This document shows, one piece after another, positions 3 to 64,000 of a DNA stretch of 64,000 nucleotides. Source of the stretch: Gnetum montanum (taxonomy: Eukaryota > Plantae > Gnetophyta). Each line of letters starts with the position of its first letter. Positions within the stretch are counted from its first letter, which is position 1. The stretch is taken from positions 251,066 to 315,065 of the forward strand of contig MNCI01002011.1 in NCBI GenBank assembly GCA_015680685.1, given 5' to 3'. The position numbers were made by a program, and so were the translations under genes. The notes beneath the pieces were generated by a model that made no database searches, had not been told where the DNA came from, and saw only the letters and a list, made by a program, of their open reading frames with translations.

Positions 3-3000
3 AGAGATATTAACATAAACCTCATCCACTTAAGTTCATCAACGGATGACGCAGTCATCACCTCAACACAACAAACAATAGACAACTACAAAGGCATGAC
101 AAGATCCCTCAACATAGGAGCCGAAAATATCACCAAAGACCCATTGACCGAAACCCCCATAACCATTCCCGATGGGGAAATTAAAATACTAAAATTAAGC
201 ACATTACTAAAACCTCACCTAGCCAAGAACATTGAAGACGTGCTTAGGGAAAATATGAAAGCATTCGCTTGGTCTTATACAGACATGCCCGGACTAGATC
301 CCCGAATTGTCCAGCACAATATTATTCTGGACCCAAAATTAAGACCAGTAACATAGAAGGCACAAAAGGTTAAACCCGAAGTGGCATTAGCAGTTCGTAA
401 TGAGATCACCAAACTTTATCAGGCTGGCTTCATTCAAGCTATTGATTACACCGAGTGGGTATCCAACATGGTCATTGTTCTGAAGAAGAATGGGAGCATT
501 CGCTTAGGTATTGACTTTCAGGATTTAAATATTGCAACCATAAAAGATGATTTTCCTCTACCCAGCATCGATCAACTTGTTGACTCGACTGCTGGGCACG
601 CGCTATTATCTTTTATGGATGGCTTCTCGGGATACAATCAAATATGCATCAACCCGAGGCATTAGCTTCGGACAACCTTTATGACACCATGGGGAATCTT
701 TTGTTACACAATGATGCTATTCAGTCTCAAGAATGCTGGGGCCACGTATCAAAGAGCAATGACATTCATCTTTAGAGATTACATGTTACACTCGCTCAAC
801 GACTATGTAGACGAAATTGTGGTTAAGTCAAAAACATCGGAACAACATATACAAGACCTTGACCTGGTATTAAAACGCTGTTTAAAGTATGAATTGAGAC
901 TCAACCCAACAAAATGTGTCTTCGACGTCAAGACAGGAAAAATGCTTGGATTCATAGCCTCAGAAGTAGGGATACGAGTAGACCCCGATAAGGTTAAGGC
1001 CATAACAAACCTGAAACCACTAGGCAACCTTACCGAACTTCGAGGTCTACAAGGTAGATTACAGTTTATCAGGCGCTTCATAGAAAAATTGACAGACAAA
1101 CTAAAACCAATGAACCACCTGTTACGCAAGAACGTCCATTTCGAATGGACTCCGCAGTGTCAAGAAGCATTCGATAGCATTAAAATGACACTTTCCTGAT
1201 TACCCACGGTTTACCCATCTCAAAACGATAAACCATTTTACATCTACCTCGCTACTTCGGATTTGTCGATTGCGTCTATGCTTTGCCAGAAACAAGATGA
1301 CAGAACCGAAGTCTCTGTGTATTACTGAAGCCATGCATTAGTTACCTACGAGAAAAAGTATAACGACGTGGAGAGGTCTTGTTTAGCTTTGGTCTTTGCT
1401 TTGAGAAGATGGCGAAATTACCTCTTCCGTAACCAAGTTAACATAATTTGTAGAGATAATGTGCTCAGGGCCATCACAGGAAACATTTACGAAATGAGTC
1501 GAATAGCCCGCTGGAAAGCCATGATAGCTGAATTTGACCTGCACTACATAGCGCAATCATTAGTTAAAGGTCAAGCCATAGCAAGTCAAATGGCCATGTC
1601 ACCAATGCATGATCAAGTGACAATAGAACCAGAATTCCCGGATGAGGATATAAGCGCAATAGACATAGTGCCCAACAACTATGATGCCATTCTAAACTTT
1701 GATGGAGCGTCCACCTCTCGAGGGGGAAGTGCAGCCACTGTTATCACCTATCCCTCCTGGGAGATCCGACCCTTTGCTTATCGTTTCAACTTTCATTGTA
1801 CAAACAACATAGCAGAATACGAAGGTCTCCTTAGAGGTCTCGTGGCAGCATTGGCTTTAGACATCACACGGCTTGTGGTCAGAGGAGACTCGCAGCTGGT
1901 CATAAACCAAGTCACAGACGTCTATACATGTAAAGCCCAACATTTACAACCATATTGCAACCTGGCAAAACACCTAACGAGGTGATTCGAAAACATCGAT
2001 GTGCAACACATCTCTAGAAATGACAATACCATCGCAGACGCACTAGCCATCTTGGTATTAAACATATCGCCTAACATGTTCCACACGTTGCCAAGCTCCA
2101 TAACCAGTTGTGCCGAACCAATAACCGATACTCTTGACACACTGCGAATCGCATCTGTTAGTACGACACACGCCATAGAATGGTATGATGACATAAAAGA
2201 ATACCTTCTACGCGGCGAAACACCACGACATCTAACAAATGCACAAAAGGATGCAGTACGAAAATGTTCTAAGCAGTACACCCTAGTAGGGGACATGTTA
2301 TGTCATAGATCCTACGAAGGCATATTGCTAACATGCGTCAATAGTACCGATGCCCAAACCATTGTCGAACAAGTACACAACGGATTATGTGGAGCACACA
2401 TAGCGCCAAAATCCATGATGACAAAGATTAGACGCTTAGGCTATTATTGGCCACACATGGAATACGACTGCCTCTCCAAGGTCAAAACATGTAGTACTTG
2501 TCAAAAACATAGCAATCTAATACATGTCCCACCACATGAATTGCATACAGCCCAAATCACGTGGCCCTTTCAAAAGTGGGGATTGGACCTTATCGGCCCG
2601 ATAACACCCTCATCTTCTGTAGGGCATGGCTTTATCATAACCGCAACTAAATATTTTATGAAGTGGGTAGAAGCTGCTCCCCTTCGAAAAACTACATCTA
2701 AACATGTATGCAATTTCATTCTCGAAAACATTATAACCCGCTTTGGCATTCCCATGACAATCATCACTAACAACGGGCCACAATTTAGTAGCGCCGAGAC
2801 CAAAACCTTTTGTGAAAGTTTAGGGATCAAACACTTGTTTTCATCCCCTTATTATCCTCAGAGCAATGGGCAAGCAGAGGTGACGAACAAAACGATTTTC
2901 ACAATACTCAAAAAGATGCTCATCCAAAGCAAGCGAAGATGGCACGAACAATTGATATACGCATTGTGGGCATACCGTACTATACATCGAATTTCAATAG

Positions 3001-3373
3001 GTAAAACACCATATAGTCTTGTTTATAGTTCAGAAACTATTTTACCTTTGGAATTACAGGTACCATCTTTAAGGATAACACTTTCTGGACTCCTCGACGA
3101 CGGGTAAAACAATGATCTGCACATCAGATCGAATGGTATCAAAAACAACAACGGCAATGACATCGGCACAACACCCATAAGCGCCCTATCAAAGAAGGTG
3201 ACCTTGTACTTAAGGCAGGTTGAGAACACTCAGACAAATTCTCAACCAACCGGGAAGGGCCTTACTTGGTCATTAAAGCATTCGACAACGGAGCATTCAA
3301 GCTCGCTGATATGGAAGGGAATGAGTTTGCCAATCCAACCAATCACTTGTTCCTAAAACCATTCTACATTTGA
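3..3373 (+). pseudogene. pol: Tat pol pseudogene (RT, RNase H, additional archaeal-type RNase H, integrase with GPY/F tail); several in-frame stops
   Basis: RT: FAWSYTDMPGLDP, SFMDGFSGYNQI, YVDE (mutated YVDD). RH: ERSCLALVFAL. aRH: FDGAS, TNNIAEYEGL, GDSQLVINQV, HISRNDNTIADALA. INT: HNGLCGAH..CSTC, WGLDLIGP, YPQSNGQAE. Ends HLFLKPFYI* at 3371-3373. Confidence 0.95.
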
Positions 3374-3395: not shown

Positions 3396-3762
3396 GTCCT
3401 GGAGTCACGACTTTAAACTGATACCACAGAATAGTCTTGGAGTCATGAATTTAAACTGATACCACAGAATAGTCTTGGATCATGACTTAAAATTGGTACC
3501 ACAGCTCGTCCTGGAATCATGACGATAAACTGATACCACACAGTGTCCACAATGACGATAAACTAGCACCCGTCAGGCACGACAGTAAACTACCACCGTC
3601 ACATTTATTAGAGTCCGCTAAGACTATAAACTATTTTGCCTCTTCATGGTCCGCTAAGACTAGAAACTGGCACTGCAGCGTCCACCACGACGCTAAATGG
3701 GCAACGTCCAACGGGTTATGACATAAAACTAACCCATGATAGTCCGCCAAGACCATAAATCG
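3396..3762 (+). repeat. Tandem array of 11 GTC-N6-10-GAC-NNN-AAACT units (Box-1/coremin xrRNA-like)
   Basis: Units start at 3396, 3434, 3472, 3508, 3545, 3572, 3613, 3649, 3680, 3706 and 3742, e.g. GTCCGCTAAGACTATAAACTA and GTCAGGCACGACAGTAAACTAC. The first units are ~36-38-bp tandem duplicates; later ones have unrelated spacers. Confidence 0.85.
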
Positions 3763-4829
3763 GCAAGTTCATCTCTGGTTCATCAACCCGCTACCACATT
3801 CAAACTTCATCAGAACCACTACATCGCTCGCCATCAGACAATCCCACCAATGTCGCTGCCACTCATATACAGTGCTTGAAATCACCTCCAATGTCTTTGT
3901 AATTGTGTAAGTCTAAGCTCGCTTATTCACTCATGGTTTTCTTGTTTCCTTAGAGTGATGTTTGCAGGATGACACCCAGAGGTTTTCGCACAAAAATGCA
4001 TTTCATCATAAGCAGCAAGATGGGACAATGTTCACAGCACGCATGGCAAGACTGAATCAAACCATTTGCTAGTACATCCCCATTTCTCAATACACTCCCT
4101 ATCTATTCCCCGATACACTTTACTCAGTCACACCTTTGATACACCCAGTACATCCAAAACTTTGAGCACGCCGTTGCATACTATAACACTTTGAAGCAGT
4201 TGCAACACATGACATAGCACTTGTACATGAGTATAGAATCAATGTAGAGTTTCTTCCCAAAGAAAAAACTCAAAGACCCTTGGCACTTCCCATACAAGCC
4301 CCAGGCAGGAAGGCAATCGTCTTAAAACCAAGTACTCATGTCAAAAATAATCAAAAAACATCCAGTTGCATAGCTTTGGCCCTCTACCAACAGGCTTCCC
4401 CTAAGAATTAAACAAGGGCCCTGTTCCTCCAAAGAATGTAACACATCCTCCCGTGGCTTTGGTCTTGCCAGCAAGTTCTCTTGAACATTACCCAAGAGGC
4501 TTGTTCCGCCAAAGGACGCACATTACACGTATGGATTCCAAGTTTGCTAAATAATGGCTATTGACAAGGATCAGCATGACACACACACACCAGAGCATCC
4601 CCTTTTCATCAAGCATAATCCCTTGGGCAATTACTAGTCCTCACAATCCTCGTTCTCCTACCAGTTACAAATTTCACTTGCCCAATCCCATGTACTACTA
4701 AACACGGTATGATGATGTCTAGTCAAGTGGCAACGGACAAAGTCTCTATCAAGTTGCTTATGGTGTTTTGCACTTCTTTGTCGACGCTTCTCGGGTCGAT
4801 TCCTCCAAACGTCAACAAAGAGGGGCCAA

Positions 4830-6043
4830 TGAAACACCACAAAATTTTGAGCTTAGTACTTGTCCAACACCAAGCGGGTCCCTGGACCCCCAGACGACCA
4901 CAGCTACATTTGGTGTCAAACACGGCAACTTCGGAGATCAGAGGCTTGATTTTCACTAAGTATGCAGTTCCAGCATATACGCCCAAGTGTGCTTTCCCAG
5001 CGTATACGCCCAGCGTAGACGCCCAGCGTAAACGTCCAGCGTATACGCTCAGCATACACACCTCACATGTACGCCCAGCAGGTACAACAGATACATATGC
5101 CCGACATGAAACCTTCAAAGACGACATGAAAACAGCACTACAGAGCGAGATTTGGCATAAGGCAACAACCTTCAGCGTATATGCCCCAGCGTATACGCCC
5201 AGCATCCATTAGTGTATACGCCTAGCATCCACCAACGTATACGCTCAGTGTATACGCCAGCGTCCACGACATCTACGCCCAAGTGCGCATACACCCAGCA
5301 CCTCCAGCGTATACGCCCACAGTCTATGCTCGCCATAGACAATGTATACGCCCAGCGTATACGCCTGGCAAATGTAACATATTGTACACTTGTAAATTTT
5401 ACACTTTTGCACCCGATCAATGTGCCACGTGTCTTCCAACCCAAGTCTACCATCAAAACCCTGTATAAAAGCTTAATTTTTGACGAAATCCAGGACGATT
5501 GGAAAATTCCCAGAGCACACCAAAGAACAGAGACACTGAGAACCAGAGCACAAAACTTTTTACGCTGGAAAAAACTGTACGCTGAGCATACAACCTCTAC
5601 ACTGTGCTTACAGTGTGAACCAGCTGCAATCATCCCTGCACCCACCAGGGCTTTCGTCTACCTTGTGTTCCACTCACAACTGCGTTTGACCAATGCATTG
5701 TCCTTTCATTTTGTAATGTCATTGTTACATTTTCTTTCCATAATCGTTTACAGTTTGCATTAATTATTGTACGTATTTTGTTTACGCCTGTTTACGTTTA
5801 CGTTCTGTTTGCATTGGTTACACTGTTTACGCCCGCTACGCTGTTTACACATAACCCAGCGTATAGCACTTCGGTATACGTTTGAGGAAATCCTTGTCTG
5901 ATCTGCGTGCGGACCACCCAAGGTACTCTACCTTCGTTCGTTCCAGCTCGCCCTCAGGCGAAGGTAGGATCTTCTGTGCGTGTCCAATGATCCCACGACC
6001 TCTGTTTCCTTCTAGCCGGAGACCGACGATTTCAGACGGTACA
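4830..6043 (+). repeat. 3' LTR of Tat1 (~1.2 kb)
   Basis: Starts TG just after the PPT. The start TGAAACACC is shared with the LTRs at 51624 and 37169 (-). Contains GCGTATACGC repeats and a TATA (TATAAAAG ~5464). Ends ..GGTACA. Confidence 0.85.
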
Positions 6044-7625: not shown

Positions 7626-8491
7626 TGATGAATCATGATTCATTAGGCTCTGATATCGAACCCGCAATATCGGATCCATGATATTAGGTACATGATATCG
7701 CGACCTAGCTAGTGATATCGGATACACGATATTGTAACTCCTATGCGGGCCTATAAATACACATGTACGCGCAAGGAGTTAGGGAGTCAGTTAAGTTAGT
7801 AGTTCAATTAGAAGTTAGTTTTCATTTTTAGTTCTTCTCAACCCTTTTCCCCTAGTGCATGCTCGCAGTGTGATGATTGTAATTGTATGACACCTTTATT
7901 CGAGTGTGACGTACTTGGAAATGCACATGATCAGAAATAAAGATCGAGATTACTTCATCATTATAGCATTCACTTAGTTTAATTATTTAAATGTTATTCA
8001 TTGCTTTCTTACTTAATACTTCTTTACTCTCAACTCCTATCCTTGTTAGTAAAAGCAGAATGAGTATGACTTAATCACGTGCATTTAAGTGTGACTACTT
8101 GGTATCCCAGTAGCGTACCTAGGATCTGCCCTTTGGTAATCCCAGTAGTAGTTGTACATGAGGTCCAAGATGTGTATGGATGATTAAGGATGGATGCTCA
8201 TCGCACTTAGGGTAGCTTAGCCTCTCTTCACCCTTTCCCTCTTAGTTAAAACAAAGTTACTTTCCATTGCCTCTAGGAGTAGCACTAGTCTAGGACCACA
8301 TCATACACCTCACTCTGGACTAAACCATACATGACAAAGTAAATACTAGTCTAGGTGGGAAGACAACAAACTATGATCGATGAGTAACTATCTAGATACC
8401 ACAACTAGCCTGTCTACAAAGTTTGATCAGATCGTGCGTGAAACGCTCGTATTCATATGGTTGAGTGTAGGGGGTACCTCGCCACTCATCA
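7626..8491 (+). repeat. 5' LTR of element B
   Basis: Collinear with 15896-16740; CGATATCG-like repeats followed by TATA (CTATAAATA ~7752). Confidence 0.95.
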
Positions 8492-24499: not shown

Positions 24500-27400
24500 G
24501 ACCAAGCACTAATGAGGGCATCAAAAATAAATCATATAGGCTTTTTACTGAGTAGTCATATGCATATTCTACAAATGCACTCTTCTTAGGGGAGTTGAAT
24601 TTATCTAACACTTTCAATTCTAAGATGATGAGAACTTAAGTGATGCTTGCTAATAGCATTCTGATACTTGATGGGAATAGTAGCTAAGAGATAATAATCT
24701 TTTACATTAGTTTAGTAGATCTAATGTGATGTAAATAAAATTGTCTCTTGCCTTTCACATTAGTCCACATCTATGTTAAAACTTTTTGTTTGACTAGTCG
24801 ATAAATATGCTTAGGATTTTGTTGTATGTCCTCCCAAGAGATTCCATTTTCTCAACCATTGCATCCCTTGAAAATATCAACCATGGTCTCGTGAATCCTC
24901 AAGAATTGCTTTAGAGAATTGTCTTGCCTTAAGATATGCAAGCTATGAGTATATGTAATAAATTAGCACAAGGCTTCTGCTTCTAAAGGTAATAAATCAC
25001 ATTCACATAATAAAATTGAAAAAGGTGTTTTTACCTTCACCTTTAACACATTGAGAAGAAACGTTTTTTTCACTCTTTCAATATCTTTCCAAAGTTTAGC
25101 ACTGAGTCTAGGTTCTTAAACAACAAATCCATACAATATGGTAGAATATATCATAGTTTAAAATTTTGTTTTCTAACCTTCCAAGCCCAAAGGCCTAAAT
25201 CCTTACACTTGTTTTTGAAAGCATACAAAGCTTTGAAGCCTCCTACTATTTTTTTTCTTTGATGCACTTCCCCACATGTAAATGTTTGAATAAATGATAT
25301 TTTATTTGTATGTCAAAGTTATATTCTTCATTGTTGCTTTTCTAAGGTTTTATTTTAAGTATATATGAACTAACCCTTATTAGAGTTTTAAGTAGGAAAA
25401 TATGAGGTACCAGGTGGGTCATTGGTACATGATATGTCATTGGAGTTTAATTTATACATTTGATAAGTTAAGCCTTTACCATCATGATTGAGAATAAAAT
25501 TTGTAACAGAACCTTAGGTGGTATGAGCATCATTTAAGTATAGGTGAAGATCAAAATCATCATGTATTAAAGTTGTAATGAGGCATTGTGCTGGTTCTAG
25601 GATGTCTAATTTCTTAGGACGTGGTTGTATGGGTTTATAATAGGATTCGAATAGAGGTGGTAAAAATAAAATATCCACTATGATTTGATTCTCAATAGAA
25701 TGGTGTGAAAGATATGAAATATCAAACTTAGTAAGAAAGGTTTTCTCTTTGTCCATGCAATTGTTATCGCACAAGTTAGGAACAATTAAGCATAAAACAT
25801 TATCACAAGATATAACATAGACACTCATCCCTAGTAGATAATGTCTTCACTTTCTAAGTGCAAAGATAAGACCAAGGTAAGACTTCTCTCTAACTATCTT
25901 GTTTCATAATATGAGAATGAATAAAAGATGTAGTAGATAGGAAGATGAACTCTATCTTTGCATAATTGGAAAAGCATGATGATGATGGAATCTTCAAATT
26001 TGAATAAAAAAAGATAGAATAAGAGATTGAACTAAGGTAGATCAAATACTAGAAGATGGATTACATCAAAGGCTTTTTACCATTTTGAATCCCACTTGAA
26101 AGTGATGGATTTTTTGAGGAGAGGTAAGAGAGAATGAAAGTAATTAGTGAGATTATAAATAAAATGATAAATGAATTATAGATGACCTTGTAAGATGTGT
26201 ATTTCTTTAACGCATCTAGGTGGAGTAAGGTTTAGAATGACTTTGACTTTACCAAGATTAACTACAATTTCATTGGTTGAGACAAGAAACTCTAGCATCT
26301 TTTCAATTTCTACTCCAAAAATACACTTCTTTGGATTAAGTGATGGCTATATTGATTAAAATGAGTTAGAAAAATGTTCAGATCTCTAGGCTAACCTATT
26401 ACTATTAGATCAAATATGTAATTATTTACCATTTTGAATATCATATCACTAAAGATATATATAATTGCTCATTGATATATACATTCCATATTTTTGAGTC
26501 CAAAAAACATCTTTGTGTAGAAAAATGTTTCCTCAGGGTCATGAAACTAATATAACATTGATGCCTAGGATTGATTTGGATCTAGTTGTAATATGATAAA
26601 TCATCAGTGAAAGATAATAATGCATGTCTAGTGAGGGTATCTATGAGTTGCTCTATGTTACACAATGAAAAATCATCTTTGAGTATTACATTGTTGAGAT
26701 TGCAAAAATATATGCGCATCTTGATATATCTTTTTTTCTTGAAAGCCATGACCATGTTGGAGGCCTAGTTTGAGTAATCTATAAAATGGATTAATCATAC
26801 ATTGTATAGCTTAATAATCTCTTCTTTAATTACAAGAGCTAAATAAATGTTAATTTTTATAGCTTTTTGCTTAATTGATTTAGAGCTTTCCTCAAGGATG
26901 ATATTCTATTGAACCAAGTACATGTCTAATCCTAGCATGTTATCATATTCCTAAGCAAAAGTAATAGAGTTATTTTGTAATGAGTTTAAAATTGAGATTT
27001 TTAGGTTTTCAAGGAGGTTATGAATGATTGGAAGAAAATATAATATTATCATTAGTATCACTATCAAGGAATCCATCTACTTAGATCTCGAAGCATCAAG
27101 GTCTAGGTCATGATTTTAAGTTAAAGTAGTATCCTCCAAGTGGTTGAATTAGCTTTAGAGTTCTCACATGTGAGCACCATTTTTTTGATCTACATGGCTT
27201 AATTTAAAATCTCAACAATGGACTTATTATCTTAGTTTTTTATCCTTGTCATGAATTTGTACATCAAAACTAGGTTTTCTTGGCCTATAATATTGTATTT
27301 GATTAGATGTAAGTTCATTATTCTATTATCTATAATATAGATATATGTAGGATTGTAGGTCATATATTTGTGATGCTTAATTAATGGTAAACTAACAAAG

Positions 27401-35491: not shown

Positions 35492-37169
35492 TGTAGCAAC
35501 TAAAAACATCAGTGGCTGGAATGCCAAGGGGTCCACGAGCACATAGTTTGGCCCTGAGTTGACATGAGGGCCTACTGAAGGTGGAGATAAGGTGCCCTAA
35601 ATGGTCTTGTCAACAAATAAGAACTTACCAAATGTGATGCCAAATGATGCTAAGTGTTAAGTAGTGTTCGAGGTGTCAGTGATGTCAATGGGGTGAGCGT
35701 AGTCAAGGGTTTCAATGCAAAACAAAGGTACCAACATGTGAGGACCACTACCCAAGCATGGCTATGGATTAGAACAATGAAAAATGCAAGTAAAACTACT
35801 AGAAATGTAAAGAAAGAGAGCAACAGAGAACTGAACACCACCCCAAGTGGGGTTGAGCGTAGTTAACTTTAGAAGGGATGAGAAGATATGTGGTGTATAA
35901 CAAGTGCAGTGGATAGCATAGTCATAGTCTCGGGGGTGTTTGGCCATGAAGACTGAAGTTCTACCATAGTATCTATGCCTATCGAGTTGGCCGCTGCGAT
36001 GAGCAATGGGCTGCGATCATCCATGGTGTCCTATGGTGAGCTACGATGGTGTGTAACCTCGCCAAATGCTAACCCAAAATTTGCAAATGTCTTGAATTGC
36101 CAAAATGCCAAATGTGCTTCAAATTTTCCAACCCCAAAAACATTGAGAGCTAGAGTATTTATAGGCCTAGGATTAGCGTGAAATGTGAATCAACTACCAC
36201 GTGGTTGTGGGATGGTTGGAACTATGTCACATCCAACTATGCTCTCCACTAAGGCTAGTGATGTTATGCTTTGCTATGCTATAAAAAAATTTATGAGACC
36301 ATGAGACTGTGACTATGATACCAATTGCATGTGCATGTACCGAAAAGATTACAATGTACTTGAAAAAATGCAACTTTGGAGACTATGCTCTCCATTGTCT
36401 TGTGTGGGGTCAAGTGTAGTTACAATTTGGGGCCAAGAAAGGGGTACAAAAAAGATACATTTTTGCTAAGTATGCTTGCCAAGGATGAGTTAGAGCTAAG
36501 GTGAATGTTGGTGCTATGTTATGAAGGCCTTTAGAGGCTATTCTAGCTAACTATGCTTTGGACTAAGGGAGAGCATAGTCCCACACTTGGAAACATTTTG
36601 CAAAAAGTGACTATGTGTTGACTATGCTCTCTTTGGGAGGCTAAATACACTCCCAATTGGGGTCAAGCATAGTCCTAGAACTTTTCAAGACTTGCAGAAA
36701 CTGGCTTCTAGTTGACTATGCTTGACTATGCTCTAGGGTAATGAAGAGCGTAGTCTCAACACTACAAAAATTTCTGCAAAACTAGGTCTTCCATGCTGAC
36801 TACGCTTGGCTATGCTCTAGGGTAGTGGAGAGTGTAGTCATAGCACTTATAAAATTCTACAATGGTTGGCTTAACACTTAGAAAAATTTGCAAAACTCGC
36901 CTTTGCGCTAACTACACTCTAGGGTAGTGGAGAGCATAGTTCCAACACTTGGAAAAAATTTGCAGCTTCTTGCTTCGCAATGACACTTAGGAAAAATTGC
37001 AAAAAATAAATTTTTGGAGCTAATTACACCCTCCACTAGGTTGACTATGCTCTAGGAAAATAGAGAATGTAGTCTAAGCACTTTGACAAATTTGCAAAAA
37101 GTGGCCTCATGTTGACACTTAAGCAAGTTTGCAGTCAAGACATTGTAGCTCGAATTTGGTGGTGTTTCA
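35492..37169 (-). mobile_element. Solo LTR of the Tat2-related family inserted in the SIRE 3' LTR
   Basis: Perfect TSD CTACA (35487-35491 and 37170-37174). - strand start TGAAACACCACC. - strand end CCAGCCACTGATGTTTTTAGTTGCTACA matches 53417-53444. TATA at ~36158. GACTATGCT/AGCATAGTC repeats. Confidence 0.9.
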
Positions 37170-51623: not shown

Positions 51624-53444
51624 TGAAACACCATAAAATTTCAGCACCCTCATGCTTCAGCAGAGTATTGGAATTTGGCCAAGGACTTCCACAAGTGTAG
51701 CGTCATGATAGTTCAGCAGGAAAGTGTAGGCACTGAGGATAGATTTTCCAGTCTAGTAAGTTTTCTATCTCCAGGGTTGACAGGCCCGTTGGACTCTCTA
51801 GCCTACCCAACTAGACAATTGACCCATCTGACAGTCTACCTAGAGACCATGCTAGGAGTTTTTGAAAGTGTTTGGGATGAGAAAAATAGTTTGGCAAGTT
51901 TTCTAGTGAAGAAGTTTGCTACGCTGTGCAGCATAGCGAGCCTTGAAAGATAACCGCTCAAGCGTCTAAGTGAAAATTGACAAAATGATTGCAAGACAAG
52001 TCAGGATTCAACCAACACAAGGTGCTACGCTATGCAGCATAGCATAGTGTAGCAAAGGCAAAGCAAAAAATCCCATCTTGCGAAGTGATTCCAATAAGAA
52101 GACTACACTTTAGCAAGACTTCGACCTCCAAAACTAGTTACCCCACTTAGCCCTTAGGCCTTGAGCAAAGTTTCTTACTAGAAAATGGTGGATTGAACAA
52201 GGAAGCATGATACACTGGCTGCTATGCTATGCTACGCCACATAGTGTAGCATAGTGTAGCAACAATGCAAAAACAAAAAAAAAAGTGTTTCAAACATGAA
52301 TTCAGAAAGTCCGAAGGCTCGCCGGCATGAAGGATAAAAGTTGCAATTGTTTTCCTGACCAAGCCTCAGACAAATGCTCTTTGGCTCCTATACAAATTTC
52401 TGTCAAGGCCAGTGGCTACGCTATGTAGTGTAACACAATGTAGCAAGTAGCTACTTACGCTACGCTAATGTGCTCAATAGCGTGAGTAGTGCAACACTGC
52501 CACAGAAGCATCAAGATATCTTTGGGTAGCTCTAGAACTTGTTGGCAACAATCTTTCTCACTCTGGCATCTCCTTGGTAAAATTAGCAATTTTACTTCAT
52601 TTTGCACACCGCTGGTCAACTCCCAAAAAATTATTCCTAAGCTTGACCCTGCTTGTAAGAGCAGGGAAGACGTAGTCCTAAAGCATAGGCTCCATTTTGC
52701 TTACATTATTAGCACACTGGATTCTAGCATATGCAGTTTCAACAGTATGGTCACAGCGTAACAAAGTTCACATTCGACATCACACACCTACACAGTATGG
52801 ACATGTTAGCACCTTGTGGGGCCCAGGACACGTGGCATCCAGACCATGTTTCTCTCTTGCTCCTGGCCCTATAAATACCCCCACAAACAATGCTTAGGGT
52901 GTTGTCTTTTTGGTGCAGTTGGCTTTTGAATAGCATAGTTGGCATTTTTGAGCATTCTAGTTACCTTTGAGTTCCCTGGTTGGCTCCAAACATCCCTTTG
53001 TGAGTAGAGCATTTTGGCATCTTAGCAAAAAAAGTAGCAAGTAGAAGGCCTATGACTATACTGTTTGGTATAAGCAATGTCTCTCTAGTATGGCATAACT
53101 TTTTGTACACCTTTCAGCAAGGCAAAGGATCAAATTCACAACCTTTGGGGCGATGCACTCTCTCACCCAAATTTTTTTTGCTATTCACTCACTATCATTG
53201 TGTTTTGCTCTATTTTCAATACCTTTCATTTATTGATCATCGATTTATTTTTCACGCATCGTTTCTAAAACAAACGTTTACAAAAGGTTAAGATACACCT
53301 ATTAAGTCCTTTTTTGATCAACCAGACCGTTTAGGGCGCCCCATTTCCATTTCTCTCCAGCACTACCCTCGCACAGATCTAAGGTTACACTGTTCGCCCG
53401 GCAACCTCTCGGTGTTCCAGCCATAGATGTTTTTAATTGCTATA
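51624..53444 (+). repeat. 5' LTR of second Tat element 'Tat2' (~1.8 kb)
   Basis: Starts TGAAACACC. End matches the solo LTR terminus. GCTACGCT/AGCATAGC repeats, TATA CTATAAATA at ~52870. Followed by degenerate tRNA-Asn-type PBS TAGCATTAGAAGGAGGG at 53450-53466. Confidence 0.85.
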
Positions 53445-53639
53445 GGTTCTAGCATTAGAAGGAGGGCCTTTTTGCTACCATTTCTATGTTTTACGGGTAG
53501 TCCTGCATGCTCTCTATATCCCATCATCCACTAGCATAAACATGACATCCTTTTGTAGTTGTTTACACATTGTGTAATGCAGACTAGTCACTACGATGAT
53601 TCCTTTGGAACCTGGCAGGACGAAAAGCCTCCGATTGCC

Positions 53640-55310
53640 TATTAATATTCGTGTTTCTCGTTTGCGACTTCCTCTTTTATCACGCAAAATGATTCCGCCA
53701 ACAACCACTGTTTCCACCTTGAGCCTTGAGGCTCCTTTCTTGGCTCAAAGCACCATAGGTGCTGAGCAGCCACCTAGCCCAATGCTAGCGCCATGCCAGT
53801 CTCTTAGGATTTAACATCTGTCACTTGAATTCCTGGCATAAGACGCAAATTTTTACAACTTCCTCTACACAAAGATCCAGGCAAATCTGCCCCTGGATCG
53901 CCAAGAACTCGAGGACAAATACAACTTCGAGTTCCTTCATCAGAATGGGAGGGAATTTATCCCTACCCTTGATGTTACCATCCCCCTGACGGAAACGTAT
54001 CAGTGGTTCTTAGACTAGCTAATGCAAGTTAGTAAGTCTAGGGAACGAGATACGGTGTCTCATTATCACGAAGCATTCCAGGATAGACAGGAAGACCTAG
54101 ACTCCCAATTCAAGGGTGATGGCTAGACTTACCCTACGACCATCCCTCCCAGCACGGTCTTTAGGTCAAACCCACTTTTTATGTTAGCCCCCTTTATGAT
54201 TACCATGACACCACCGCAATCTACATTTTCATCAACCATGGGCAGTCATTCTGCACCCTCAGTGTACCAACATGCTCCTCCCTCAGTTTCATTCCCAGGC
54301 ACTCTCCCTCCTCATTCTATCCCATCCTCATACTAAGCGTCGATCATAGCTACATTGCCCTATGTGCACACCCTGTCTACTTCATAGTCGCATGGAGTCT
54401 CTACTCCTATTCCACTATCTACACCTATTCCACCATCAACGATAGGCCCAGCCCCAACCATGTGGTGGGCCCCAGCCACTTCACTCCCTATTTCGCAACC
54501 TTCCCAGATGTCACATTACCCTTACCACCAAGCATACCAGGTCTCGCAGATGTCACAACCAGGTGCGAGATTGTGGCCCATCCCATCACTCACGCAAATG
54601 ACTAACCATACAACACCACCAGCGGCCGCTGCTCCAACAGCACCACCCACTAGGTGGTGGACCTCACAGGTAACACCCTTAGCAAGGGTAGCCCCAATGG
54701 CACCCCCTATGAGCTAGGCTACTGTCTTTACTACACCACCAATGATGGTTGCCCTTACAACCCCACAATCGTCTACGTCGTCTCCGGGTCTGGATCAAGC
54801 GTTCCAACTTATCCAGATCCTCACTGAAGAGATTAAACATCTCAAAGCCGCCGGTTTCGACATAGTGAAGGTCATGGATTTCTACCATGACGACCCCATC
54901 AACCCAGCCATTCCCATGCTCACATTACCCCCTGGGATGCCACTTCCCCACTTCACAAAATACAATGGGGAGGGTGATCCTAACGCCCATTTAGTCATGT
55001 TTAGATCTGAATCTTTGTTGTTGCAGTAGTGGCCGCACACTATTATTCGCATCTTTGCTATGTCTCTAATGAGAAAATCTTTAGACTAGTACCGTGCACT
55101 TCCACATGCCTCCATCTCAACACTGGAGGAGCTGCTGACCCAGTTTGTGAACCGCTTCAAGTATAACTTGAAGCCTGAAGTCATGCTGGATTAGTTGATG
55201 GGCATTAAGCAAGACCTACTAGAGTCAATGCAAAAGTTTATACAATGATGGAGCGCTACCTTGAATGAGATCCGTGAGCCTATCATGGACACTCATTTGC
55301 TGGCTATCTT
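53640..55310 (+). pseudogene. gag: Tat2 gag (Pro-rich N-terminus plus Retrotrans_gag core), decayed
   Basis: LPHFTKYNGEGDPNAHLVMF..IRIFAMSL..SISTLEELLTQFVNRF..GIKQDLLESMQKFIQ. The start position is approximate. Confidence 0.8.
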
Positions 55311-55641
55311 CAAGGGGCCCAAGCTATACTGCCTAGCCCCATGCTTTCTCAGTCAGGCTTTCGCCCAAACGAAGAGCATCCAAGACATAGCCGAAGCCAA
55401 TAAAGACCCAACCTATGTGTTGGCGGTCGTTTGGGACGCGACCGCCAACGAGTGTCCTCGAACAGGATTTAGGTGCCTGCTGGTCTCTGGCAACACCAAG
55501 GCCCAGATACCTCTAAATAAACTCAGTAGTTAATGTGAGTATGTGTGTGTGCTGTTGCGACGTGTGGTTGTGAGAACTGTAATGATTGTGTTGCGTGTAA
55601 ACTACAAATGACTTACTTTAAAGAGATTCAGCCAACTTTGC

Positions 55642-57458: not shown

Positions 57459-58230
57459 TCAAATAATATTTAAATGGTAAAGTGCTTTGATGACTGCGAA
57501 ATCTTGTTTCTCTAAGTCTGAATAATTTAACTCTGAACCTTTCAACTGATTCCCAAAGAATCCAATTGGTTCATCTTGACCTTCATTATCCTTTTGTGTC
57601 AGAACGGTAGCGATAGAATCATTTGAAGCAAAAGAGTATAACCAAAAACCTTTTTTAAGTCTAGGCTTTACCAAATATGGAGCTTCTTGTATAGCCTTTT
57701 TAATTTCTGATAAAGCTCTCTCTGATTCTGGTGTTTTCTTGACTTGGACATCCTTTTTTAGCATATGCATCAAAGGTTTGGTAATTTCAGTAAACCCAGG
57801 GATGAACTTTTTCACAAAGTTTATTTTCCCAAAGAAAGATCTAAGAGATTTCTTACTTGNATCTTCTTTCTTCTTTGAGAATATCGTAATATTGTCCAAA
57901 TAAACCATCACAAATTTTCCTAATAAATCCTTAAATGCTAAATCCATTGCTCTTTGAAAAGTAGCTCCAGCATTTGACAATCCGAATGGCATTCTTTGGT
58001 AGGAAAAAGTTCCCCATTTAGTGATAAATGATGTTTTGTATCTATCATTCTTATCTACGATGATTTGATTATAACCTGAGAAACCGTCTAAGAAAGAATA
58101 TGCTTGACAACCTGAGACTTTAATCAACATCTCATCAATTCTTGGAAGTGGATACTTATCCTTTTTTGAAGCATCATTCAGATTTCTAAAGTCTACACAA
58201 AGTCTTATATCACCATTTTTCTCCTTTTCA
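57459..58230 (-). pseudogene. pol: Isolated Gypsy (Tat-like) RT/RH fragment from a different family; probably gap-fill sequence
   Basis: GDIRLCVDFRNLN..YSFLDGFSGYNQI..MPFGLSNAGATFQRAM..VYLDNI. A single n at 57860 marks a jump within RT. Confidence 0.8.
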
Positions 58231-58234
58231 ACAC

Positions 58235-60849
58235 TTGCTGCAACTTTCTCCTTTTCTATGGATGTCCATCTCGATGGTCCTAGAAAAAAGGTGGCAGTGG
58301 TAGTCTCACCCACGGAAAAGGTCATTTCCCTTTTAGGGGATTCACTGACTATCACCTATTTCATAAACCTGTCGTAAGCCCTAGAAGTGCCAATAATGTC
58401 AAGGAATACCTTGTAAGTATGTAACTTGACAGAGGCATCCTGATATTTTTTATGGTAGGTGGCACGTTCTAGTTTATACATGTGTTTGTGATTTTTCTGT
58501 GCCTGCCCCCACTCGTAAACTTTTGCACTGTAGTCCTTCTAGTCTTAGTTCTTTTGGGCTAGCAGGTCCATTTGCATGCGTTGTTCTATTATTTCATGAG
58601 TCGCCTCATTGTTGCATCGCACGACCATCTAATACCTTGCATAGTCAATGACAGCCGTGCACCAACTACCATCGTTAGTGTCTTGGGCCAACAAGAATTT
58701 GTTCCTAGATTAGAGATCTCCCACCTCGGTGGTCAGATTGGCTTTCTCCCTCTCAAGCCTCTGTACCCCTTTCCAGAGGTCTTCATTCACATTCCTACAT
58801 TCCCATAAGGAGTGTGCCGAGTATAGCGCACATTAACTTGCTTCGTCGTATATGCAACAAGGTACTTCGTCACCTCCGGTGGAAATTCAGGCATGGTGTC
58901 AACCTCAATCACTTGCTTAGGGTCCCACTTAAGGCGAGAGGCTACCAACCGCACATAGAAAGGCATTAGTCACAATGGCATAGTGAAGCAACAACAATTT
59001 AGAGAGTCTAGCATAGCAACTTTAACTTACCCACTTCTGGGTCGATCTGCTTCAGACAATTGATCTTGTCATCGACCACCCCCTGCATGAAAGTAAATTT
59101 GTCAGGGGTCTCGGTCCACGGTTGCAGGTAGATCAAGGAAGGGCCAGAGGTACCAACAGTGGTGTCTACTACATAATAAAACGTGTTAGCCACAGTGGAG
59201 GAGAACCACAATAAAGTTGATGAATAATATAAATGGCAATGTAAAGCTCCCACCTAGCAAACCCTTAGGGGTGATAACAGGGGGGGTCACCCATTGGCAC
59301 ACTGTCAAATATGTGGTCAAACTCACTAGCATCAAAAGGAGCCCCTCTCCTTCCAGCTAACCCAACAACATAGCAGCATCCTCAATACTCATGTGCCCCT
59401 CCAGTACTGAACAACTCTACCCAAAAGGGTCATCAGCAGGGGCCTCTTCTTGATTGCTAGGAGCCTCTTCCTCATTGGCTAGGCCCCTTTCTTCATCGGC
59501 AAGGGCCTCCTCTTCATCAGCAGGGACCTCTTCCTCACCAACTGAGGTCCTTTCTTCTGCAGTAGGGGTCCCTTCTTCTTTGGTCAAGGCCCCCTCCTCT
59601 ATGGCTGGAGCCTCTTCGTTTTCACCAATCGCCCCTATTGTAGGGATCACCACCTCTTCTTCCCCTTCTTCCTCTCCTTCCTCTACTAATAAAACATGGT
59701 TACACTAGGCAAGATATGCTAACTTAGAAAAAAAGCTACTCTATGTAACACCATCTAGCATAGCACAGTGTAGTAAGCATTAGCCAAAAAAAACTTACCA
59801 ATCGAAGGCTGCACTCTGCAAAGTTTGAGCCACAACTTCTTCCCTCTTTCCTCATTTGTGCAGGGAAGTTCCTCAGCCAGAAGAAATCTCTTACGTTGCA
59901 ACTTAGTTGTCACCATCTCTGCAATGAGGCATTCCCCCCTTGTCACACTGCTGGTGCTAATGGGAGGTGCCTCACCCATGCTATCCTGGGCACAAAAGTT
60001 GCATGCCACCTGATCCCTGGTCGTCATTGAAAATGATTCCCCAATAGCTTCTGGGGGGTCCTGAGATTGGGTGGTACAGAAGACTTGGAAGATCCATGGT
60101 TTGGAAATCTAGCTACAATCTTGTAGTACCTAGACCCCATTCTCACGGAGTACCAAGAATTCCACAAAATGCCGCAAGAAGGCTATGAAAAAGGCATGGT
60201 GCATGTTCAAGCGGGACTCAAGCTTCCCGCGGAGCTTGACCATTTCAACCTGCAAGCCTCTGCAAAGGTGTTTGGCCCAATTGTAACAAGTCCCCTCTTT
60301 CATGACATCCTTCATTATCCAAGTCTACTCAATTCCAAGGATTTTTTCTTGGGAGAGTAGCTTGGGGAAAGCACAGGTACGGTAGACAGGTTAAAGCGTT
60401 TTGGCCACCCATAGCCTGACCTTCTCAATATAGATCCCCTTTTAGTCCTTTACCACCCCTAGCCACTCCTCAATGTCCCCTTGATGGTTTGCATCTTTCT
60501 TAGATTTTTTTTCTATGGGGAGACCATCAGAAGGGACACCGAAAAGATCTGCAAATAATTGATTGTTAATTTCAAACACCACTCACACACCGTGAACACG
60601 TGTGTGGAAGCGGTCCACTTTCTCAGAGAAGGAGTCAGCTAGGAAAAGCATTTTGGCAAGTGGGACGTTTGGGTTGATGGCCAAAAATAAGTCCATGAGC
60701 CCAACCTCTTGAAGGTTATGGACAAGTGTGGTTAGGGCCCCATTGCAAAGCCAACACTAGGTCTCCTCCACCTCCCCGTACTTGAAAAAGAGGTTGGTTT
60801 CATTGCGCCCAGAGGTGATCACAGTCACCTCTTGGGATTTCCTCACCAT
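58235..60849 (-). pseudogene. Antisense accessory gene of the Tat element: plant-mobile-domain-like N-terminus, acidic repeats, coiled coil; two spliceosomal introns
   Basis: ATG at 60849, then FEINNQLFADLFGVPSDGLPI and CYNWAKHLCRGL. The track ORFs starting at 60315 and 60027 are in the same frame. GT-AG introns at 59798-59683 and 59030-58942 preserve the frame. EEAPAxEE repeats. Confidence 0.7.
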
Positions 60850-62849
60850 TGAAATAGTTTACAAAATAATAGAAAAAAATTTAGTAAAAAAAATGAACAC
60901 CACTCGAACATGTAATAGTGAATTCACAGTTTAGCGTACCAAGTTTAAATGGCATGGGAAATGGTGGGAGATCCACCAACACATCTTCAACGGTGAGCAG
61001 CCTAAGGGATGCCCACTCCCTATCCAACTAACTAGCTTCTTTACACTTCCCATAAAATTAAGAATACTGGCTCGGATAAATTTTGAACTCATCCCCAAAT
61101 TGTCCTATTATGCCAGCGCACACATTCCCAGTAGAGGAAAACTCTCGTAGGGCCATCTGTGCCAATGCCAAGGCATCTGTATCACCGTGGAGACCACTCC
61201 TGTCAATAAAAAAACCTAGCAACACACAAAATATATATATACACACTATAATAACTGTGTCTAGTGTAGCATGGATTACACAACGTAATAAAATACCTTC
61301 ATAGAACTCATCCGCTAGCATAATAAACGATTCCAGGTGGGTTATGAAAGTAGTTGCCCATATGATGGGCAATGAATAATGTGTTGTATAAGTGATAGCA
61401 CTTATACTCAGGCATCTTCCAGATCCAACTTAAGCATCTCAAGACTTTTGGGCACTGATTGGAATCTTCTACCCAATCACCCCAGATTGACCCATCAGTT
61501 AAAAATTTCAGAATGCCCCGATTTGCCCCGAGCAATAGGGTTTCTATAATTACGGCTACTATCTCCACTAATAAGTGTGACCAAAAAATCACACTAAAAT
61601 GGCAGAGGAGGAACTGTAGGAAGTCCCGTGTGCCCTCCCGGAACCAGACCGCCTACCATCCCACACGTGCATGGGGAGGAGGGACATTGGCCACCAGTTC
61701 CCTAAGGCAACACCTGACTCCCACAATCTCTAGGATAATCAAAATGAGGTTTAACATGACCTTGCACAATGAAGCATCAAGCGTTAGCACTGTGTACGAG
61801 TGAAGTTTACACGTAGCATAGTGTAACCCTCTAATGACATATAGCGTAGCATGACATTTTCTTTGCATATAGCATAGCATGATCTCCCAGTCGTAAATCT
61901 CTCTCTAAAAAATAGAATAAAAATCATAAGTGACATAGTAACATGATACTTGCAGCGTAGCATAATCATCAAGCCTCGTGCAATGCAACAACACTTAGAT
62001 GTAAACGCATGACACGTGACATAGCAAATGAACAAGAACAGATAGATGTACAACAATATAACAATGAAATCAACATATTACTATGACAGGCATGGCAACT
62101 TAGCAAACTTAACATAAACAAATTCAGCAACGTAGCGGTGTTGCAGATTCAACAGCATAGCAATGCGACAAACTTGAAGACGTTACGACATATTGGCATA
62201 GCGTAATAAAATCATCGCAAAGTTTAGACAAAAAAGAATTCACTGTGCTACAGCTGTCTCAACCATACTTCTACCATACAAAATAACTCACGCTACACAT
62301 GTCACGCTCTCAAATCTCGTAGATGGCCAAACCCTCTTGAGGGCAGCACACTACGCTAACCATGCGCTAAGCTATTCAGAATCACCCAAACCCCAGCGAC
62401 AAGGCAATCACAATAATGGTGGTCAAGGTAATACCAGATGTAGCTGTAGTGTAACATCCATACAGCCGTTGTGGCCAACCAATAACAGCGGCAGCGTAGC
62501 AGCCAAAACAACAACCAAAATAATGGCAAAAGACGCAGATTTCATCACAATAATGATTACTGTAGTCTAAAAAATAGGGGCGGTGTAGCAACTTACTGAG
62601 CATACGGAGCCTCCTCCCACACTTCAACATGTGCCTTGGACAAGCACCCCAAAGTGTCCTTTACCTCGTCCACCTTAGCAAGTCCTCGGTGCTTGCTTTG
62701 GCCTTTGGGTGTCATTTTCTCACTCACAAATTCTCTATCAACTGCTATGCTACACTACTTCACTTTCTCTCGGCGCAACCACAGTACGCTCTGGATGTGG
62801 GCTCTACGCTCTGACAATGAAAACGACAAGTTTACTAGGGGTAAACCCC

Positions 62850-62858
62850 TATTTATAG
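62850..62858 (-). promoter_or_regulatory. Candidate TATA box for the antisense gene
   Basis: CTATAAATA on the - strand, with a TGGGCCC site at ~62978 upstream and LTR-type AGC(G/A)TAGC motifs nearby. Confidence 0.45.
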
Positions 62859-63044
62859 CTAACGCGGTGAAAAGAACTTGTCATTTTCACACCCCGAGTA
62901 ATGTGGGATGTATGGTATAGTGTAGCACTATTGTGTCATAATCCTACTATAGCATAGCATCATTGTTTGCAAACAAGTGGGCCCAACTAAAAATTTTGTC
63001 CCACCTTGAATTAGCAACCTACCTTTACAAAGCCTACTGCCATG

Positions 63045-63245
63045 GTCCACAAAGATCTTAAACTAGTGACCTTAGTTCTCGAACTCCACCTGTTAACAAT
63101 CTACTAAGACCTTCAACTAGCAACCTTTATTTACATTCTGATGTACACTGTAGCATGAGTACAGTCCACCACTATCTTAAACTGGCAAAGTTAATGTCCC
63201 TTGCATGTTCCAACCCATTCACGGTCTGCCAAGACCTTAAACTAG
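63045..63245 (+). repeat. Second array of Box-1/coremin-like motifs (4 clear or degenerate copies)
   Basis: GTCCACAAAGATCTTAAACTAG (63045), ATCTACTAAGACCTTCAACTAG (63099), GTCCACCACTATCTTAAACTGG (63164), GTCTGCCAAGACCTTAAACTAG (63224). Confidence 0.7.
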
Positions 63246-63334
63246 TAACTTGCGAACTTGGCCGAATAGTTGACAATTATTTCATGCTTCATTATTACTT
63301 TGCAAATGTTATTACGTGCTATTGCTACAAATAG

Positions 63335-64000
63335 GTATCACTTGACCTAGCTTTTTCTTATTGTGGCAAGTTGAACAAAATGGCCATGCAACGTGATCTA
63401 CATTCACTTTTAACCTTGACAAGTCCTCATGGCAAGCTTGCAAGACATCTAAACTTAGAGTCAATAGACTGGGAATCATCCACTTATAACATTGTAGCGT
63501 CCCTGAAAACATCCCTAGATTGGCCCAAACATTTGATCCAAGCCCTAGACTTAGAGGTTGGGGATGTGACTGAGGACCCCCTCATCGAAGCACCTATAAC
63601 GACATCCAGGGGGAAAATAAGGACACGAAAACTTAGCTCCCTCCTAGATCAACAAATACAAAAGGATGTATCTAAAGTCCTTCAAGACAACGTCAAAGTG
63701 TTCGCGTGGTCCTATAATGACATGCCGGGCTTAGACCCATGGCTAATACAACATAACATTATCTTGGACCCACGTATCAAGGTAGTCAAAAAAAGGCTCA
63801 CCAAAAATCGCACTAGCTGTACATGATGAAATTACCAAGCTATATCAAGAAGGCTTCATCTGCATGATCGATTACTCGAAGTTGGTATCGAACATCGTTG
63901 TAGTCTCTAAGAAAATAGGAAGAATACAAATTTTTATAGACTTTCAGGATCTAAAGAAAGCAACGACTAAAGATGATTTCCCACTACCAAGTATTGATCA
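63335..64000 (+). pseudogene. pol: Start of Tat pol (pre-RT linker plus RT N-terminus), runs off the window end
   Basis: EDPLIEAPI..VFAWSYNDMPGLDPWLIQHNIILDP..IDFQDL..KDDFPLPSID, homologous to positions 3-570. Confidence 0.9.

Follow-up and report, generated by a model that had tools for sequence, protein, structure and literature searches.

The window analysed here, a transposon-rich stretch of 64,000 nt from Gnetum montanum, carries parts of two Tat-type LTR retrotransposons, each with an array of short coremin-like motifs beside its pol gene. In the second, probably Ogre-related element this array (array 2) occupies the 90-340 nt ahead of the RT frame, and it is the subject of this study. 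The features to which we refer, in window coordinates, are the following.

3..3373, plus strand: pol of the first Tat element, in the order RT-RH-aRH-INT
3396..3764, plus strand: sister array of about ten units, of short- and long-loop types, starting 22 nt downstream of the stop codon of the first element's pol
51627..55320, plus strand: LTR and Tat gag that may share an element with array 2, the link being interrupted by nested pieces and N gaps
58200..60849, minus strand: decayed antisense ORF region with an N-terminal domain, acidic 21-nt repeats and a possible coiled coil
62850..62857, minus strand: TATA-like box pointing away from pol, with a depth peak in 4 of 4 runs (bin 62766-62879)
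62998..63019, plus strand: half-unit relic, the 3' half of the motif and its tail without the first hairpin, unscored by the viral-only model
63045..63067, plus strand: unit 1, loop CACAAA, which fails the YG loop rule (17.1 bits, E 0.029)
63099..63121, plus strand: unit 2, loop UACUAA, decayed in the window copy (6.4 bits)
63164..63186, plus strand: unit 3, first stem broken in the window copy and in most aligned contigs (10.2 bits)
63224..63246, plus strand: unit 4, loop UGCCAA, which fits YGNNAD and has the top contig depth of the array (20.0 bits, E 0.11)
63335..64000, plus strand: start of the second pol (pre-RT region and RT, no protease) with ATGs at 63380 and 63386, its frame broken near 63800 and cut by the window end
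63341..63370, plus strand: predicted branch point CTTGAC (63341-63346), U-rich tract and 3' splice acceptor

An earlier note, made from the letters of the window, had described array 2 as four units plus a degenerate fifth, separated by unrelated spacers and placed about 90 nt before the pol frame. This anatomy holds. The four units start at 63045, 63099, 63164 and 63224, at distances of 54, 65 and 60 nt, all on the plus strand, and the stop-to-stop pol frame opens 90 nt past the last of them. The fifth, 47 nt ahead of 63045, is present as a 3' half and not as a whole unit. The cores are 65-83% alike and are followed by shared 6-nt tails that show duplication, and beyond these 6 nt the spacers are at background (0.47 vs 0.44, p=0.11). 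A plain tandem repeat was rejected on this ground and because TRF reported none at array 2; a frameshift signal was rejected because no reading frame enters the units. The pattern GTC..GAC..AAAC, by which the motif had been defined, is complete in the window copy in one unit of four, 63224. Unit 63045 reads GAT, unit 63099 departs as ATC..CAAC, and unit 63164 has TAT for GAC.

The clustering of the units exceeds chance. A pattern derived from the window, and thus circular, matched 10 times, always within the two arrays, compared with 0.34 matches in each shuffle, and clusters of four occurred in none of 100 shuffles. A weight-matrix model was trained exclusively on 38 tandem viral motifs, with zero window sequence; these were kept from 150 loose matches, one overlapping match being removed. 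Since both the window and the published motif had shaped the loose pattern used to collect the viral set, its core letters are not independent, while its loop letters are. This matrix gave 63045, 63164 and 63224 the bit scores listed above, and 63099 its 6.4 bits once the 5' floor was removed; no cluster of three in 250 nt arose in 40 shuffles. A covariance model built from 14 viral hexaloop motifs recovered two of the four units (63045 and 63224, at the E values listed) and missed 63099 and 63164. Single matches of the viral model at 8349 and 16599 are unclustered and were taken as chance. Elsewhere in the window, a dispersed array of about five units at 36538-37122, with GACTATGC...GCATAGTC hairpins and TTGCAAAAA linkers, is unrelated to the coremin motif.

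By its sequence the motif matches coremin (xrRNA_C), and the xrRNA-like character that the earlier note had assigned to it is borne out by its rediscovery with virus-only models. Coremin is described (PMC6546385, PMC10520033) as a three-pair stem with a YGAD or YGNNAD loop, an AAACUA spacer and a required second hairpin, found in BNYVV RNA3, cucumoviruses and other RNA viruses. The array shares with it the GUC/GAC three-pair stem, the pyrimidine at the first loop position, the A at the penultimate one, the three-base linker, AAACU, the tandem copies and the six-base-loop variant. The penultimate A lay outside the search pattern, and it is present in 38 of 38 tandem viral motifs and in 10 of 10 six-base-loop units of the window. 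Unit 63224 shares 18 of 21 nt with an intergenic element of dicistronic picorna-like contigs (L123-L128), which lies 11-12 nt past the ORF1 stop in six contigs; these make up 6 of 13 matches and belong to one virus group. A protein scan of the viral contigs returned no relative, and Rfam has no family for the motif (one chance match; only tRNAs at 13 viral loci).

The differences from coremin are equally clear. The host is an LTR retrotransposon, the position is likely intronic, the tail of the array units pairs with the loop by standard pairs, and both the second hairpin and, in three of the four units, the loop G are absent. Hairpin 1 (at least 3 bp, closed by Y-R) is present in 63224, in most family contigs for 63045 and 63099, and not in 63164. 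The YGAD/YGNNAD loop occurs in 63224 only; 63045 and 63099 have the Y, A and D with A in place of G, and the loop of 63164 ends in C. No convincing second hairpin was found in the tails of array 2, whose folding energies of 0 to -2.1 kcal/mol do not surpass those of shuffled sequences, whereas the viral twin in L123 has one of 7 bp. According to PMC10520033, hexaloops without G at loop position 2 were not resistant when tested in the BNYVV context; as that test used the BNYVV tail, the rule may not apply to the array units. In viral genomes we saw no enrichment of the A-loop form: in IMG/VR it gave 4 matches as compared to 7 for a broken-stem control, and with a compensating tail 3 as compared to 11 for a non-pairing control. 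The array-2 units are thus coremin-like in core and in probable fold, and depart from the type in hairpin 2 and, for three of four, in the loop G.

A specific pairing register is suggested by natural variation among the motifs. It joins the bases that immediately precede the invariant A in the loop to those right after AAACU, and was first spotted by eye in the same data, so that its statistics, which leave kinship among sequences uncorrected, should be read with this in mind. In viral tandems with loops of at least 8 bases, 67 of 76 positions pair, as opposed to 28-35 when the register is slid, and none of 5000 tail permutations reaches the Watson-Crick count. Single viral matches with the invariant A are paired at 85 of 100 positions, and probable chance matches at 62 of 190. 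The window units pair at 37 of 56 positions versus 11-13 slid (p=0.0008), a result that stems from the sister array with its related long-loop units; for array 2 by itself the figure is 11 of 16 versus 2-5. The signal is absent from six-base-loop viral tandems (11/32), and the units of array 2 do not covary among themselves (p=0.51). For the ten hexaloop units of the window, a two-stem structure is paired at 78.8% (stem 2 at 72.5%) versus 12.5-38.8% slid, a paired fraction that 17 of 500 shuffles also attain. Individual units agree in part: the predicted knot of 63045 consists of A-U, C-G and A-U pairs plus one mismatch; in unit 63224 the inner pair is made complete by the base that 46% of contig depth has at 63244, and in unit 63045 an outer pair is broken by the base that 53% has at 63068.

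Taken as a whole, the covariation points to an H-type pseudoknot in which the loop pairs with the bases after AAACU. Its register is identical to the 6-20 and 7-19 pairs tested for the Watson-Crick coremin type xrRNA_WCC, likewise an H-type pseudoknot (PMC10321173). That type has features of its own, namely a four-base loop beginning with G (G5), a G8-C18 pair and a needed hairpin 2. The array units instead have six-base loops that begin with C or U and end in A or C, keep AAACU, and have stem 2 lengthened outward.

Several observations concern the motif outside the retroelements. In a giant-virus-like contig (L046:488-900, minus strand) it stands ahead of four tRNA genes, once before each, and it occurs three times upstream of tRNA-Tyr in another DNA virus contig (L097:185-360, minus strand), and long-loop forms in DNA virus contigs show strong pseudoknot covariation. 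At L129:3001, L130:900, L132:3001 and L135:3001, in three unrelated phages, the A-loop form immediately precedes a Shine-Dalgarno-like run with an acidic ORF that resembles a phage head scaffold; its counts do not exceed those of a control pattern.

The genomic copy in the window is dead. Sequencing runs of five related organisms contain the stretch, and the state of the family was read from contigs of four DNA runs aligned to the window, variant percentages being shares of contig depth. These contigs cover all 30 bins of 60600-64000. The earlier note had named two outcomes as fatal to its claim: that the array was a rearranged 3'UTR misjoined to pol, and that the family consensus lacked GTC..GAC..AAAC at the pre-pol site. 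A misjoin was rejected, since contigs of other copies bridge array and pol and the adjacency is family-wide; among the records listed for run X2, for example, one spans 63192-63442 with 32 differences. The strongest loose contig ends listed look window-related at indels rather than like a foreign junction, and no listed piece covers the whole stretch. The consensus keeps the pattern, most contigs being motif-conforming: 85% of depth at 63056 (unit 63045), and 71% at 63099 and 96% at 63114 (both unit 63099), which identifies the departures at these positions as decay of the window copy. AAACU, present in three of four units in the window, is present in all four by contig majority; the next base is A or G, followed by G rather than C. 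The loop A is another matter. Position 2 is A in three of four units both in the window copy and in most aligned contigs, and as none of the 11 A-to-G rows falls on this position in 63045 or 63099, the A is kept in most copies. Joints skipping 97-188 nt within the array indicate a variable number of units, though some may represent units aligned onto each other. Depth is maximal on unit 63224 (11166, versus 1250-2303 in bins 63030-63191), in part through cross-mapping. Unit 63224 is likely the main working copy, with the others as backup or decaying duplicates.

Between the array and pol lies a candidate splice acceptor. A canonical YAG|G ending at 63369 is carried by 73% of contig depth and not by the window copy, and a competing AG at 63349 is missing in 88%. 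The predicted exon begins one base before a pol codon, in frame, 10 nt ahead of AUG 63380. The presence in most copies of a branch point, a U tract and an in-frame YAG|G at this place makes it likely that array 2, 125-325 nt ahead of the predicted acceptor, lies within an Ogre-type intron. Neither a donor site nor a protease was found in the window, and the three RNA runs, with 8, 0 and 0 reads on the stretch, contained no spliced reads. The N-terminus of pol had no close protein relative in the searches.

Upstream of array 2 the DNA is AT-rich and either non-coding or antisense over at least 5 kb. The antisense ORF has its acidic 21-nt repeat at 59430-59618, and neither a Pfam match nor a database relative was found for it. 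At about 58223 the region abuts an unrelated piece of RT, namely an RT-RH with an internal deletion that derives from another family (57459-58223, minus strand); the junction falls at a short GAAAAGGAGAAA repeat, which suggests a template switch. Repeats of the TAGCATAG type occur at 52013-52470, in the LTR at 51627, and again at 61800-62960, around the antisense promoter, with a marginal blastn match (E 0.03), and a nested minus-strand piece at 55320-55520 interrupts gag.

The second element belongs to a diverged Tat family, as the earlier note had stated: its RT is 67.5% identical in nucleotides, and its pre-RT N-terminus 45% in amino acids, to that of the first element, and the non-coding DNA of the two is otherwise unalignable. 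The motif is nevertheless common to both families, in two positions, before RT in one and after pol in the other, and in both arrays the units are on the sense strand only. Units of the sister array score 11-25 bits by the viral-only weight matrix, and their setting 22 nt past the pol stop parallels that of viral tandems behind ORF ends. The sister array mixes short-loop units of RNA-virus type with long-loop units resembling those of DNA viruses; stem 2 of its units 3396, 3508 and 3706 has 5-7 pairs. In the 3' LTR of the same element there are 13-nt CCAGCGTATACGC repeats (4984-5377). A third, very decayed Tat fragment (25400-27016) has no units by pattern or by the viral-only model.

The affinity of these elements is probably with Ogre. 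In the first, RVT_3 follows RT_RNaseH, representing the additional archaeal-type RNase H; the second is cut by the window end. In a tree of 50 hand-picked rows, none of them reference-labelled and the Ogre and Retand labels being our reading, the RT of the first element groups as sister to one from Cryptomeria (99/94), in the neighbourhood of legume Ogre-like RTs and away from two Retand-like rows, with deep forks open, a placement that makes a gymnosperm host probable; the RT of the second was too short and was left out. Ogre elements have an intron between gag-PR and RT that is spliced in part of the transcripts, a gap averaging 274 bp, and an additional ORF, either ahead of gag or in the 3' portion (PMC6317226, PMC4408406). 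The order RT-RH-aRH-INT of the sister element, the pol frame without protease, the candidate acceptor before RT and the related RT agree with this. In contrast, the RT of the second element has no less than 5 kb ahead of it, in which an antisense ORF and a promoter lie. The Ogre-type extra ORF is sense when upstream of gag or antisense when 3', often with a plant mobile domain, whereas the ORF here is antisense, upstream of RT and without a Pfam match. None of 34 angiosperm Ogre-like loci carried an array (four single 12-bit matches; a redundant metagenomic set of 377 kb from few host species), and the module thus looks lineage-restricted. Arrays between pol and the 3' LTR of Retand/Tat elements are described as family-specific and given no function (PMC11963269), and tandem arrays without an assigned function are common in Tat (PMC11963269, PMC6317226). 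The former resemble ours in adjacency to pol, variation in copy number and an antisense extra ORF, yet are head-to-tail, family-specific and after pol, whereas the array-2 units have conserved cores with background-level spacers, are common to two families and lie before RT. An antisense gene, an array and an acceptor between gag and RT are absent from the Tat layouts described in the portions of these texts surveyed.

What might such an array do? We see about an even chance that the coremin-like units stall a plant 5'-to-3' exonuclease on unspliced RNA and lie at the 3' end of an intron that is spliced off the Pol message. An alternative is that they are no RNA elements at all, and represent hypervariable Tat/Ogre repeats, or repeats that belong at the DNA level to the antisense promoter, at a distance of 190-390 nt, and that look like coremin through one ancestral unit. 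Tandem arrays are indeed frequent in Tat elements, of the four units only 63224 conforms to the loop rule as tested, duplication is evident from the 6-nt tails, and some compensations can be mimicked by C-to-T and G-to-A decay. The same core nevertheless recurs in two families whose non-coding DNA has otherwise diverged beyond alignment, cores persist among background-level spacers, orientation is constant in both arrays, and the sister array is far from a promoter and varies by several pairs in its knots; we therefore hold this alternative unlikely. A block that acts in the nucleus, either by leaving a stable fragment of the excised, debranched intron or by keeping XRN3 off the polymerase after cryptic poly(A) cleavage in a long intron, would suit the closeness of the array to the acceptor, the long AT-rich and antisense tract upstream, and the nuclear location of XRN2/3 (PMC8892269). 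Because the viral precedent is cytoplasmic and the sister array exonic, we regard it as very improbable.

The knots may instead face mainly ribosomes rather than nucleases, as roadblocks that keep them from scanning into pol, or from reinitiating there, on unspliced RNA or on divergent sense transcripts of the antisense promoter, with nuclease resistance incidental. Coremin cuts scanning about five-fold, in wheat germ extract as well (PMC10520033), and hairpin 2, absent from array 2, is not required by the Watson-Crick type for its ribosome-facing activity (PMC10321173); the array and short upstream ORFs stand directly ahead of the pol AUG. The larger sister array, however, lies behind a pol stop with no downstream ORF to guard, which leaves this explanation decidedly unlikely. 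The earlier note had proposed, among other ideas, an uncapped pol-only subgenomic RNA, protected by the block and translated from AUG 63380, as intergenic xrRNAs may allow in plant and picorna-like viruses. The context of this AUG is good (AAAATGG), the viral near twin of unit 63224 stands at the head of a dicistronic intergenic region, and pol begins without a protease. This part of the note is not supported: the predicted in-frame acceptor in most copies, together with six stop-closed AUGs that ribosomes would meet from an RNA start at 63045 (two from 63224), argues against a translated pol-only RNA. No IRES-like fold was seen in the AT-rich 63250-63290, and Pol of LTR elements is normally delivered as a Gag fusion. 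Moreover, coremin itself impedes scanning ribosomes (PMC10520033). We consider a translated pol-only RNA improbable. The note's second idea, that the array shields pol-containing RNA from decay begun in the upstream antisense and stop-rich region, fits the anatomy and is the best reading, the function being one that we infer.

According to this reading of an exonuclease block on unspliced RNA, each unit would fold with the GUC/GAC helix as stem 1, a one-base first loop, and a stem 2 in which the loop pairs with the U of AAACU and the next three bases. Unspliced RNA would be decapped after the stop that lies upstream, or cleaved within its overlap with the antisense transcript, and XRN4 (or nuclear XRN2/3) would degrade it up to the array. 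The block would leave a stable, mostly untranslated 3'-coterminal RNA, and on unspliced RNA these knots would also impede ribosomes that scan toward pol; splicing would take the array out of the Pol-coding message. The benefit of such a block is questionable, since stable uncapped RNA can feed RDR6 silencing (PMC8892269). More tentatively, and as a possibility that we think doubtful in its full form, a gymnosperm-type Ogre-related lineage may have adopted the viral coremin knot, as a pseudoknot lacking hairpin 2, for a mobile module in a giant gag-PR/RT intron with an antisense gene, such that splicing frees the Pol mRNA of a nuclease and ribosome block and unspliced RNA attacked at the antisense overlap is trimmed to a stable pol-to-LTR RNA.

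The xrRNAs have been described from RNA viruses. In the main texts searched, for the most part openly available ones, we found no xrRNA or coremin in any retrotransposon; the accessible portions of a 2025 review of host factors of plant LTR elements (PMC12786077) and of a 2025 xrRNA paper (PMC12397905) make no mention of such cases. For the coremin fold, as yet unsolved, the natural variants of the units supply a definite register of pairing, and with it the prediction that a longer pseudoknot stem can take the place of hairpin 2. If the proposed model is true, this would be the first xrRNA in a retroelement of a cellular genome, and an exonuclease block switched by an intron. If the units resist XRN, a viral block to RNA decay would be in use by plant LTR elements, and the non-coding arrays of Tat elements, long unexplained, would acquire a function open to test, at least in one lineage.
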